64,000 nt of DNA, taken from assembly GCF_003790525.1 (NCBI RefSeq), contig NZ_CP033635.1; one strand, given 5' to 3'. The DNA comes from Escherichia coli (GTDB taxonomy: Bacteria > Pseudomonadota > Gammaproteobacteria > Enterobacterales > Enterobacteriaceae). This document shows, piece after piece, positions 56,701 to 64,000 of the stretch. The position numbers were made by a program. How positions within the stretch are numbered: position 1 is the stretch's first letter; each line of letters begins with the position of its first letter.

Positions 56701-59700
56701 CGGCAACCGCTCCTGACGATACAACCAGCGCACCATCAATTCGGTGTAGTTGCGCAGCTTGACCAGACAACTTTCCGGATCGGAGTGAACATAGCGTTCC
56801 GCCATACACGCGAGTTCAGCCAGTTCCGGCCACTGGCTGCGCAACATTTCAAAATTGAGAGACTGCTCCATCAATCATCGCCTTATGTCGTGGATACAAC
56901 AGCATTTCTGGAAAGAATATCACACTAATTTGGCCGACGAAGTGAGCCGGATGGCATATGGTGGTGATGTGTTTAACGACATAACTGCTCTAACGGTCAG
57001 ATCCTTGGTTTTCGCCCATCAATGGGCATCTTCAGCCATGGCTACTCACAGGATACCTTGCTAACCAATGAAGGTATGGCTGATCATCTATGGGATATGT
57101 TTTTTGAGCCAATAAAACGATGGAGCTTTTCTCCAAGTTCATCATTAATGAATTTTGTTTCAATGCATTAATCAACTCTTCGCATTTTCGCTATCTTTTA
57201 TCCACTTCCCTTTTGAAAAGGTGGGTATCTACGTTACCAATACTGGTTTAATGGCTACATACGGCGGTCCGTTTACGCTTACGGTAAAGATAAGCGATAA
57301 GCTCCCAGCGCTAGGACCGGGAGCTCTGCATAGCTACCACCATTTAGGATAGTCGTTAAAAGCACGTAATATTGATTGCCTGGCAGCAGGCATCAAGCTT
57401 TTCACTTCCTTTTGAAAGGGAGATACCACCATTGATATCTTCCTTCATACATGACCAATTCAGCACACCAGCGACTGGATATGGCGGGAAATGGTGGCCC
57501 GGGGGTTACAGGCAGTGAAACCATCGTCAGGGATGCTGTTGCCAAATGGCGTAAAGGCTGGAACCCACCAGTTACTACTGCCGCCAGACTTCCTTCAGTG
57601 TCCCGGGTAAGCCGCTGGTTGATGCCCTGGATAATAATCAGGGGTGAAGAAAATTATGCTTCCCGATTTATTAGTCTGATGTGTGAAAAAGAACCGGCGC
57701 TGAAAATAGCGCAGCAACTAGTACTTGAGTTCTACCGTATTCTGAAAACCCCAAATAAATCAAATCTAAGCAGTTGGTTCACTCGAGTCCACGAAAACGG
57801 TTCAGCAGAACTTCGGCGCGTGGCTGCGGGGATGGAAGCTGATGCTGCGGCTATATGTGAGGCAACCAGCAGCCGCTGGAGTAACGGTGTTGTCGAAGGT
57901 CATGTAAATCGCCTGAAGATGCTGAAACATCTGATGTATGGTCGAGCCGGATTTGAACTACTTAGGCAGAGGGTAATGAGTCCACTGGCATGAAAATCTC
58001 CACCTAGGTTGCGGAAGAGCCACTTTTGCACCGTTCGTGATAATACCGTAAATAAGCCTCTGAAAGTTATAGGATATGACACAACTAAAGAAGTCTGTGT
58101 GAACCGCGTAATACCAAGTGAATTGCTTGTTATATCTGTTTAATTAAACCTAATCGACCAGCCTTACTGGAGAGGCTGGTTAGTGATTAACTGGGAGTAT
58201 TGCAATTAGATGTGTTCTACAGGCCCACGAAGGTAGATGGCTGCCAGAGTTCATCTTCGCGTGTAAAAGACTCTTAGTTGATTAATTCTAATTTATCGAT
58301 CTATTACGCGATCATAATATTCGATGATTTGCAGTGCAACAGCAGCAATTTGTACTGCTTCCTCCCTACTGGTACCGGCTGCTTTACCACCAAAACGATC
58401 ATGGAGGACAGCCTGATGAAATTCTCCCACCTCTTCTCCGAGAATCGCTCCCCAGATAAAAGGATCTTGATTACGGTCTGCCCCCCATTTGGCATCCTGC
58501 CGTTGCATTTCCGCTAGCACGTCAGACAGGGCTTTAGTGTCTTGATGTTTACCTTTCATGTTTCCCTTACGAATCCGTGATTTTAAGTCCATCATTAACA
58601 TTTAATATGTGCAGAGTCCATTAATTCGCTACATCTCATTTTGTGAATGAGCGTTGAGTTTGCTATAAACGTAGCAACCAAGAAAAATAAAAGTGGATAA
58701 TTTTGTTCATTACCTTTCAAAGCAAGAAGTTAAGGACTATTTGCGAGAGTATGCATGAGGCAAATGAGATCTTTGGTGACAAAGTGGCATCAAGACTACG
58801 CTCGCGACTTTCCGATCTTTCCGTGACAGACAACATATTACTGTTGCCCGTAGGTTCGCCGGAGGTCTGCTTTGAGGATGGGGAAGAGTGTATTACAATT
58901 ACCATTCTCGGTGATGTAAAAATGGGATTTGTCTGTGGGAATACAGTTCAGCCCAAAAATCAAGATAATACAATTAACTGGTCCCGAGTTAGCCGGATAC
59001 GGTTAGTGTTCATAGGTGACGTGAAATGATAGTTACGCAGGACTTCCAGCCTGACTGGGTATCTCCACCCGGTGATACAATTATAGATCTAATGGATGAA
59101 CATGGGCTTTCTGGTGAAGAACTGAGTAAGAGGATTGGATTGTCTCTTATCCGGGGTCAGCAACTTCTTGAAGGAAAAATCCGACTCAATGAGTCTCTGG
59201 CTTGTAAGCTTGAGGAGTTATTCAACGTATCGACAGACTTCTGGATCAAGCGCGAAGTCGCTTATCGCCAGCAAATTGGATACCTCGAGAAAGTGAATAA
59301 TGATTGGCTCGAATCATTGCCTGTACGTGATATGATGGAGTTTGGTTGGATCCCCAAAACTACAACTCGGGAAAGTAAATTCCAGCACTGCCTATCGTTT
59401 TTCGGAATAAATTCCGTCAATGATTTTTTTTATAAAATTCAGTCAGATGCTCCTTTGGTCGCTTTTCGTAAATCTCTTAATCTGGCAACCGAGCCTATGG
59501 CCGATTTGGTGTGGCTGACTAGGGCTGCACAACTTACCTCAAACCAAAACTGTGCTGTATGGGATAAAGAGGGGCTGATAGCATTGTTGCCAGAACTGCG
59601 CAAAGCTACAAATGAACCCGACATGAGGATTTTTATCCCTTACATTCGCGACCTTCTCGCCACTGCTGGAGTTTCTCTCGTTGTGTTGCCAACGCCAAAG

Positions 59701-62700: not shown

Positions 62701-64000
62701 GACGGATGAACTGCGTGCTCAGGGTTACCCCTTTAACGTAAAAACCGTGGCGGCAAGCCTGCGCCGTCAGGGACTGAGGGCAAAGGCCTCCCGGAAGTTC
62801 AGCCCGGTCAGCTACCGCGCACACGGCCTGCCTGTGTCAGAAAATCTGTTGGAGCAGGATTTTTACGCCAGTGGCCCGAACCAGAAGTGGGCAGGAGACA
62901 TCACGTACTTACGTACAGATGAAGGCTGGCTGTATCTGGCAGTGGTCATTGACCTGTGGTCACGTGCCGTTATTGGCTGGTCAATGTCGCCACGCATGAC
63001 GGCGCAACTGGCCTGCGATGCCCTGCAGATGGCGCTGTGGCGGCGTAAGAGGCCCCGGAACGTTATCGTTCACACGGACCGTGGAGGCCAGTACTGTTCA
63101 GCAGATTATCAGGCGCAACTGAAGCGGCATAATCTGCGTGGAAGTATGAGCGCAAAAGGTTGCTGCTACGATAATGCCTGCGTGGAAAGCTTCTTTCATT
63201 CGCTGAAAGTGGAATGTATCCATGGAGAACACTTTATCAGCCGGGAAATAATGCGGGCAACGGTGTTTAATTATATCGAATGTGATTACAATCGGTGGCG
63301 GCGGCACAGTTGGTGTGGCGGCCTCAGTCCGGAACAATTTGAAAACAAGAACCTCGCTTAGGCCTGTGTCCATATTACGTGGGTAGGATCACATAACCTG
63401 AAATGGCACTAATGGCCAGAGCTTACTAATACATAATCCCTACAGGATGTAGCCACCAGTTTTGTTCATCCGGTATTCTGATTTGGTAACATGCTCCAGA
63501 AAGGAAGAAATATGTACTGCAATGAATTAAAAGAATTTGCGCAAGAGCAGGAACAAAAACTTATCAGTGCGCTTGCTGATACCAGAGAGCACCCGTCCCC
63601 CGATGGTGAAACAAGAAGCCGGGATAATTATCAACGGGATTACGCGCGTATTCTGTATTCATCATCATTTCGCAGGCTGCAGGGAAAGATGCAACTTTTT
63701 GAAATTGATCCTGAAAAATTCAACAGAAACAGATTAACGCACAGTCTTGAGGTTGCTCAGATCGCCCGAAGTATCGCGTCAGACCTCAAACTGATTAACC
63801 CGGTGGTGGTTGAACTGGCAGCGCTGGCGCATGACATCGGAAATCCTCCTTTCGGTCATTCCGGTGAAAAACTGCTTAATGAACTGTCTGAAGAAATCGG
63901 CGGCTATGAAGGTAATGCACAGGCGCTACGTATCCTGAGAAAACTGGAGAAGAAATTTTCATACTGCAACGGATTAAATCTGACTCACCGTAGTTTACTT

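Follow-up and report, generated by a model that had tools for sequence, protein, structure and literature searches.

A four-gene cassette with a predicted cytosine-specific thymidylate synthase-like enzyme and a toxin–antitoxin-like pair, adjoining an anti-phage dGTPase gene in an Escherichia coli defence island

The stretch of Escherichia coli DNA analysed here (64,000 nucleotides of contig NZ_CP033635.1, hereafter the window) ends in a region, 58293-64000, in which a sequence-only reading had recognized MazG-like, ThyA-like and dGTPase-like genes and had grouped them as a defence island that targets nucleotide pools or DNA modification. All three genes are present, the last being cut by the window end, but they do not form one group. 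We consider it about an even chance that an IS3 element here links two mutually independent modules of a defence island: a four-gene cassette acting as a toxin–antitoxin-gated, deoxycytidine-modifying effector, and an anti-phage dGTPase. The cassette encodes a thymidylate synthase (TS)-like enzyme, a protein of the aGPT-Pplase3 family (a fourth nucleotide- or DNA-acting gene, at 60111-61055, which had been overlooked), a fusion of an Xre-type helix-turn-helix (HTH) domain with an M78 peptidase, and a small protein with a HigB/RelE fold. The toxin–antitoxin-like pair formed by the last two (58703-60108), which had been described as interleaved with the nucleotide-acting genes, does exist; it is, however, an invariant component of the cassette that contains the TS-like gene, and not interleaved cargo.

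Architecture and spread of the cassette

Many E. coli strains have the 4.2-kb core of the region in their chromosomal DNA with 100% identity. The four cassette genes face each other as two pairs. On the plus strand, a small open reading frame (ORF) with a TTG start (58703-59029; 108 amino acids) overlaps by 4 nucleotides (nt) the start of the Xre-M78 gene (59026-60108; 360 amino acids). On the minus strand lie the TS-like gene (61052-62032; 326 amino acids; WP_000174035.1), which bears the RefSeq name 'thymidylate synthase', and the gene for the protein of aGPT-Pplase clade 3, also called ADDT (amino-acid:DNA-transferase-like; 60111-61055; 314 amino acids), whose first 4 nt coincide with the end of the TS-like gene. 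The stops of the Xre-M78 and aGPT-Pplase3 genes are 2 nt apart. At identical E. coli loci the RefSeq labels read MazG-like family protein, XRE family regulator, thymidylate synthase and IS3, while the 314-residue product is called either alpha-glutamyl/putrescinyl thymine pyrophosphorylase clade 3 protein or 'hypothetical'.

The same arrangement recurs far beyond E. coli. Among about 100,000 species-representative genomes, 219 encode relatives; at the protein level, relatives make up about 3,900 clusters at 90% identity. We compared 87 loci fetched by relatives of the aGPT-Pplase3 protein, namely six individual look-ups (Providencia, Vibrio, Bradyrhizobium), the best 80 of the 219 species-representative stretches encoding a relative (one genome per species) and the E. 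coli locus; gene counts were taken from single-sequence and profile searches. The aGPT-Pplase3 gene is found in all 87 loci, the Xre-M78 gene in 85, the small ORF in 84 and the TS-like gene in 83. Order and orientation are invariable, the enzyme genes running TS-like to aGPT-Pplase3 towards the oppositely oriented Xre-M78 gene with the small ORF behind it, and the few missing genes are a matter of contig ends. Taxonomically, the set spans Gamma-, Beta- and Alphaproteobacteria, Bacteroidota, Acidobacteria, Chloroflexi, Actinobacteria, Planctomycetes, Verrucomicrobia and Myxococcota. In IMG/VR, 24 loci were recovered among 2.9 million contigs, all 24 with the same architecture, and their identifiers suggest that many are isolate genomes. 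The cassette is almost certainly a single unit of four core genes, in which two translationally coupled pairs meet tail to tail.

The junction between the pairs is tight: in 78 of 85 loci the convergent stops lie between 22 nt overlapping and 12 nt apart (−22 to +12). Since abutting stops leave no room for a terminator, the convergent transcripts would be expected to overlap. The small ORF has largely escaped annotation, being unannotated in most E. coli RefSeq records, including that of the identical locus in strain 2-1, and listed as a 'hypothetical protein' in strain ET450; because it is kept in 84 of the 87 loci, it is a missed gene.

The cassette is mobile. Its flanking genes are unrelated from one locus to the next, the only recurrent ones being integrases or recombinases, type I restriction-modification (R-M) subunits and Shedu; Shedu, HipA and integrases flank it in other species, and an aGPT-Pplase3 homologue was found on ten plasmids. 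In E. coli, the cassette with the MazG-like gene is chromosomal and occurs at no less than 99.8% identity in 231 of 5,426 complete genomes (4%), and a divergent allele (79.5%) is carried by four genomes. In one of these, ET450, the locus occupies the leuX-tRNA island and reads integrase, TS-like, aGPT-Pplase3, Xre-M78, small ORF and MazG-like gene, followed by a type I R-M system with a DUF4268/PDC-S11 gene. The Providencia locus has the same layout.

A five-gene variant was also observed. In about a dozen loci an additional gene, encoding a protein of about 266 residues, is inserted between the TS-like and aGPT-Pplase3 genes (L100, 7168-7995; L072, 7166-8011; also L097, L101, L104 and L114-L116). 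The protein belongs to a large family with 2,881 relatives, and the gene took the same position in three of three independent look-ups. Searches of Pfam, NCBIfam, PADLOC and PHROGs, and of the PDB with both the sequence and a profile, gave no significant match to it; a likeness to UDG is tentative at best.

The two gene pairs and their closest relatives

The name 'ThyA-like' proved right as regards the fold of the TS-like protein (Pfam Thymidylat_synt PF00303, 6e-25), but not as regards its specificity determinants, which are those for cytosine and not for uracil. With 81.4 bits against a cut-off of 327, the protein falls under every NCBIfam thymidylate synthase equivalog cut-off. In a PDB search its closest solved relative was MilA (1.6e-41 over residues 26-304, the C-terminal extension included), the best true ThyA structure reaching only 1.4e-18. 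MilA is the CMP 5-hydroxymethylase of mildiomycin synthesis, and the determinants of specificity have been defined experimentally for MilA, the T4 enzyme (T4 CH) and TS: Asp at MilA position 186 or T4 CH position 179 goes with cytosine and Asn, at the position of E. coli N177, with uracil, whereas Ala176 and Lys133′ of MilA go with ribose, and Ser (TS-167) and Arg (TS-126′) with deoxyribose (PMC5175136). The protein of the window has Asp188 (cytosine), Ser178 and Arg130 (deoxyribose) and the nucleophile Cys157. In an alignment of 82 cassettes, Cys157 and the phosphate-binding residues Arg177 and Ser178 are each present in 82/82 and Asp188 in 81/82; position 130 is Arg in 73 and Lys in 9, and the sugar-binding His and Tyr are kept in 81 to 82 of the 82. 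The catalytic Glu is likewise present. In the same alignment, position 188 is Asn in E. coli ThyA and in the TS of the defence system DS-4.

With these cytosine and deoxyribose determinants, the enzyme would probably act on deoxycytidine monophosphate (dCMP) rather than on deoxyuridine monophosphate (dUMP), and it is most likely a dCMP 5-hydroxymethylase, although a dCMP methylase activity may be likewise compatible with its sequence. It has in common with MilA and T4 gp42, a dCMP hydroxymethylase, the Cys, Glu, His, Tyr and cytosine-specifying Asp, but its deoxyribose determinants (Ser178, Arg130) are of the T4 gp42 type and not those of MilA, and its gene belongs to neither an antibiotic cluster nor a phage. 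This very protein, WP_000174035.1, appears in Table S10 of the DefensePredictor study as a 'Predicted novel defense gene' with a log-odds score of 7.6 (Science 2026, PMC13092281).

The aGPT-Pplase3 protein matches Pfam aGPT-Pplase3 (PF18746, 5.5e-90) and ADDT (PF18724, 1.1e-58). Neither sequence nor profile searches of the PDB returned anything, and fold comparison alone gave a match: the protein shares the HhH glycosylase-like fold of gp46 of phage PaMx11. Its motif E296-D-x-L-C300-N-W-Q-K is invariant in a 31-sequence family alignment (E296 and C300 in 31/31), and E296...C300 aligns with E243...C247 of gp46, whereas identity to the viral amino-acid:DNA transferases (AADTs) is only 10-17%. 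The scheme proposed for gp46 has Cys247 as the covalent nucleophile and counts Glu243 among the DNA-contacting residues; the mutants described there were assayed for DNA binding by electrophoretic mobility shift, that paper containing no enzyme-activity assay (PMC11472151). Mutation of the corresponding Cys and Glu in the clade 2 relatives M6 gp51 and ViI gp247 did abolish activity, and clade 2 aGPT-Pplases are proven amino-acid:DNA transferases, whose substrate, 5-phosphomethyl-dU, is made in phage DNA by a dedicated base kinase (PMC8989533). No characterization of clade 3 was found in the searchable literature. By analogy with these relatives, the aGPT-Pplase3 protein may use the Cys300/Glu296 chemistry on a 5-substituted pyrimidine.

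The partner pair is reminiscent of a toxin–antitoxin locus. The 360-residue protein matches Pfam Peptidase_M78 (ImmA/IrrE, 2.4e-10) and HTH_3 (1.5e-3), as well as the PADLOC model PD-Lambda-2_B (8.7e-30, residues 15-341), and its HExxH motif (H261, E262, H265) is kept in 80 of 81 homologues. The 108-residue protein has no match in Pfam, nor to the PADLOC model of PD-lambda-2 A, but its AF2 model (pLDDT 94) has HigB, YoeB and ParE of the RelE superfamily as top Foldseek matches (TM 0.6-0.76). PD-lambda-2 is a validated abortive infection system composed of a HigB-like A, an Xre-peptidase B and a P4-antitoxin-like C, in which B is toxic alone, A neutralizes B and the third gene, C, is required for defence (Vassallo et al. 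2022, PMC9519451). The cassette resembles it in that the Xre-M78 protein matches B and is preceded by an overlapping gene for a small protein with a HigB fold like that of A; it differs in having no component C, since there is no third gene on that strand and the convergent TS-like/aGPT-Pplase3 pair stands in its place. We infer from this likeness that the HigB-fold/Xre-M78 pair could be a toxin–antitoxin-like gate.

Two further comparisons place the enzyme pair. Phage thymidine hypermodification (PaMx11 gp51/gp49/gp46, M6 gp51/gp54) combines a dUMP hydroxymethylase, a 5-hydroxymethyldeoxyuridine (5-hmdU) DNA kinase and an aGPT-Pplase/AADT of clade 2. The cassette, in contrast, is cellular, has cytosine determinants and a clade 3 transferase, always comes with the toxin–antitoxin-like pair and lacks a base kinase: it encodes no 5-hmdU DNA kinase, and nearly all loci have just the four genes, none of them a kinase. 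DS-4 is a different, validated TS-containing defence system of E. coli, in which the TS gene is accompanied by genes for a deoxynucleoside monophosphate (dNMP) kinase and a 5-hmdU DNA kinase and by NDT-like and NMAD genes; the same study also highlights unvalidated predicted systems with aGPT-Pplase and MazG domains (PMC13092281). DS-4 and the cassette are alike in that a TS-fold enzyme is combined, in bacterial defence, with nucleotide- or base-modifying partners. The two TS proteins are, however, only about 23% identical (71/306 aligned positions), that of DS-4 having Asn in place of the cassette's Asp188; the other four DS-4 genes are absent here, and DS-4 has neither an aGPT-Pplase nor a toxin–antitoxin-like pair.

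Next to the small ORF, and transcribed divergently from it, lies the MazG-like gene (ORF 58293-58601, minus strand, 102 residues; RefSeq coding sequence 58293-58559, 88 residues, 'MazG-like family protein'). RefSeq and JGI name it MazG-like or NTP pyrophosphatase; the E. coli protein itself has no Pfam, NCBIfam or PDB match, and its family profile meets the MazG-type structure 1VMG only below threshold (E = 0.72), over a conserved EEVGE motif. This call had been regarded as the weakest of the three, and indeed only the names and the motif speak for it. The profile searches assigned none of the three proteins to a non-nucleotide family. Among the 87 loci, a MazG-like gene of the E. coli type lies beside the cassette in 4, all from Enterobacterales (E. 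coli, Enterobacter and Providencia); it is also found in 3 of the 24 IMG/VR loci. In eight alphaproteobacterial loci, the gene immediately upstream of the HigB-fold ORF, and co-oriented with it, instead encodes a different small protein with a Pfam MazG match of 5e-4 (L071, 10413-10787; also L047, L062, L073, L076, L080, L081 and L083), and the same accessory is found in the IMG/VR loci L102, L103, L106, L107, L109, L111 and L112. Because hhalign detected no relation between the two types beyond an EExxE motif, a MazG-type accessory seems to have been recruited twice by these cassettes.

Proposed function and alternatives

Taken as a whole, a role of the cassette in defence or in some other conflict appears rather likely. 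The particular mechanism that we propose, gating coupled to corruption of the nucleotide pool or of DNA, is much more tentative. The HigB-fold/Xre-peptidase pair would be the sensor and gate, and infection would release or activate the enzyme pair, which would be the effector. The TS-like enzyme would convert dCMP to 5-hydroxymethyl-dCMP (5-hm-dCMP); where present, the MazG-like pyrophosphatase would supply dCMP from dCTP, as does T4 gp56, so that dCTP would be drained too. Cys300 of aGPT-Pplase3 would then attack C6 of a 5-substituted pyrimidine and swap its C5 substituent, the substrate being either a free nucleotide or DNA after base flipping. The net result would be a 5-substituted dead-end product and a drained or corrupted deoxycytidine supply, or DNA, of the replicating phage. 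In the second module, the anti-phage dGTPase would deplete dGTP.

Several observations weigh against this proposal. The cassette encodes neither a dNMP kinase nor a base kinase. Going by T4 biology, 5-hm-dCMP should not reach DNA via E. coli enzymes, and the phosphate leaving group of the known AADTs is not provided. The HigB-fold family shows no conserved RNase residues of the His/Tyr type. In the two promoter regions of the cassette no convincing shared operator could be recognized, and an inverted repeat upstream of the TS-like gene (see below) has no counterpart upstream of the small ORF. The assignment of the 58293-58601 protein to MazG is weak, and the gene is missing from most cassettes. 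The five-gene variant means that the chemistry is not fully captured by a four-gene model. No PADLOC model matched the TS-like, aGPT-Pplase3, small or MazG-like proteins. Finally, a search of the available literature brought up no experiments on the cassette; the DefensePredictor entry is a prediction only, and the other three cassette proteins were not found among the entries listed in the supplementary tables of that study.

It is tempting to speculate further that with aGPT-Pplase3 the AADT family has its first member that is cellular, independent of a kinase and directed at cytosine, and that together with a host dCMP hydroxymethylase it attaches a bulky adduct to C5 of deoxycytidine, either in DNA or in dNTP precursors, as an immune effector released by the HigB-fold/Xre-peptidase switch; we regard this stronger version as doubtful. 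Work on phage DNA hypermodification has until now treated it as viral counter-defence, whereas the cassette places the same enzyme family on the host side, tied to a toxin–antitoxin-like switch and a predicted cytosine-specific hydroxymethylase. If the reading of an AADT-type immune effector were true, bacteria would turn a phage-style chemistry of DNA hypermodification on the phages. Working out the cassette would give Pfam PF18746 a function, reveal whether a base transferase can dispense with a base kinase, extend the nucleotide-targeting defences (dCTP deaminase, dGTPase, DS-4) by another mechanism and possibly provide a tool to derivatize 5-hydroxymethylcytosine. As it is, the database names 'thymidylate synthase' and 'thymine pyrophosphorylase', both misleading, are corrected. 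The dGTPase is of an already known type and the cassette had been flagged by a machine-learning predictor, but we did not find its predicted cytosine specificity and its strict four-gene architecture stated in the literature available. The neighbourhood of clade 3 was probably described in silico by Iyer et al. in 2013 and Burroughs et al. in 2015.

Alternatively, the enzymes may act on self DNA, hypermodified cytosine in the host or the mobile element serving to protect it from restriction or to mark it as self for a partner nuclease. Iyer et al. reportedly proposed such self-DNA roles for cellular homologues in 2013. The fold of aGPT-Pplase3 is that of base-flipping DNA enzymes, and in E. 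coli and Providencia the cassette adjoins a type I R-M system on an integrative island. Such proximity is nevertheless seen in few of the 87 loci, none of which reveals a conserved nuclease partner; no kinase is available that would turn 5-hm-dCMP into a polymerase substrate, nor any base kinase, and a gate related to abortive infection is unexpected for constitutive marking. We therefore regard the self-DNA explanation as unlikely.

Another alternative is that the TS-like enzyme and aGPT-Pplase3 make a free 5-substituted cytosine nucleotide or base as an antimetabolite or signal, much as MilA/MilB and BcmA/BcmB do in the initial steps of mildiomycin and bacimethrin synthesis. This is quite improbable, since in place of MilA's ribose determinants (Ala176, Lys133) the cassettes have the deoxyribose type, Ser178 in 82/82 and Arg130 in 73/82, and around the cassette there is no conservation of other genes for biosynthesis, export or resistance. 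To much the same degree we doubt that the locus is a plain addiction module stabilizing a mobile island, with the enzymes as cargo and the clustering due to the way defence islands are packed. The pair does resemble type II toxin–antitoxin loci, the island is rich in insertion sequence (IS) elements and integrase remnants, and the dGTPase is a truly unrelated neighbour; cargo should vary, yet the same two enzymes are found in essentially every locus across phyla, their stops adjoin those of the pair, and conservation of their catalytic residues is strong.

Lastly, it is hardly credible that the enzyme genes are a remnant of prophage thymidine hypermodification or include a spare housekeeping thymidylate synthase, as the RefSeq and Pfam names and a PHROGs match to thymidylate synthase families (1.6e-43) might suggest, given the Asp at the uracil-specifying Asn position, the scores below all ThyA cut-offs, the lack of a 5-hmdU DNA kinase and of any nearby phage structural gene, and the presence of the cassette in only 4% of E. 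coli genomes. A prophage origin was rejected, no aGPT-Pplase3 homologue being detectable in 50,697 phage genomes, as compared with 24 IMG/VR loci in 2.9 million contigs.

The IS3 boundary, the dGTPase and the wider island

The IS elements that had been noted in the region are indeed there: an ISL3 transposase fragment at 57451-57993 and an IS3 copy at about 62135-63391 on the plus strand, whose orfB (62495-63361) encodes 288 residues (NCBIfam transpos_IS3, 3.3e-101). The IS3 forms the boundary between the cassette and the dGTPase gene and takes, in the window, the place of the integrase side. Its ends read TG...CA by eye, the repeat finder having reported no terminal repeats. The 3 nt that flank it differ, ACT on the cassette side and CAT on the dGTPase side, so that there is no simple target-site duplication; these mismatched flanks suggest that cassette and dGTPase were joined by an IS3-mediated rearrangement rather than by plain insertion.

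A consensus scan located a promoter-like site 5′ of the TS-like gene (62063-62092, minus strand; TTGACT-N18-AATGAT). About 20 nt beyond the IS3 end, homology with the upstream region of Enterobacter sets in again, and the site is therefore retained. Within this putative promoter region, E. coli and Enterobacter have TTGACT and AGGTGGTAATGATT.GTTAC in common, and Providencia has kept them in part. The imperfect inverted repeat GGTGGTAATGATTAGTTACTACC (about 62052-62074, within about 62044-62080) overlaps the −10 element of the promoter-like site and is flanked by direct CATACAGG repeats; it looks like a putative operator.

The dGTPase gene (63512-64000, plus strand) is represented in the window by the first 163 codons of a 410-residue gene, the translation of which shows the HD motif. 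At identical E. coli loci, RefSeq records a 410-residue dGTP triphosphohydrolase family protein after the IS3. The full-length protein of such a locus matches the PADLOC dGTPase model (2e-109) and TIGR01353 (316.5 bits against a cut-off of 152), like the anti-phage dGTPases, but differs from them in that its 284 bits against the NCBI antiphage_dGTPase exception model NF041026 are under the cut-off of 400. The anti-phage dGTPase reportedly goes back to Tal et al. in 2022. The gene is an independent module of this already known anti-phage family. It lies beside the cassette in 0 of the 86 other loci, and the comparison across E. coli strains, which recovered the cassette in 231 of 5,426 genomes and the four 79.5% alleles, revealed no dGTPase at the divergent allele of ET450. 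A single three-gene system was ruled out on these grounds, and the proposed clustering of three genes proved non-random only in part, the MazG-like gene travelling with the cassette only in Enterobacterales.

The view that the region is a defence island rather than a metabolic locus fares better, in so far as the three genes are not taken as one system. It is borne out by the R-M and PADLOC-matched neighbours, the family of the dGTPase, the accessory distribution (231/5,426), the scores of the TS-like protein below the ThyA cut-offs and its DefensePredictor entry, and that the stretch is part of a defence island is thus supported. The stretch is immediately preceded, on its upstream side, by a type I R-M system, with the restriction subunit HsdR (1,138 residues) encoded at 53458-56874, and candidate models of PADLOC (PDC-M55A/NsnB/AriA, PDC-M40B, PDC-M09A and WYL) are matched further upstream.

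On the minus strand at about 42664-46306, three adjacent genes match PADLOC PDC-M40B, PDC-M09A and a WYL-domain regulator model, and are a candidate for another defence module of the same island; the RefSeq name of the PDC-M40B gene, 'ATP--cob(I)alamin adenosyltransferase', is probably a misnomer. At about 48094-50612, a 540-residue AAA/ABC-type ATPase matches PADLOC PDC-M55A, NsnB and AriA, and an adjoining protein of 298 residues has no match. The two genes sit between an integrase fragment and hsdS in a low-GC block (GC 0.31-0.37 over 47.5-51.5 kb), and may be a further pair of defence genes lying inside the type I R-M locus. The N-terminal 210 or so residues of HsdR separately match PADLOC PDC-M16A (1.5e-40), which gives this type I restriction enzyme an additional domain.

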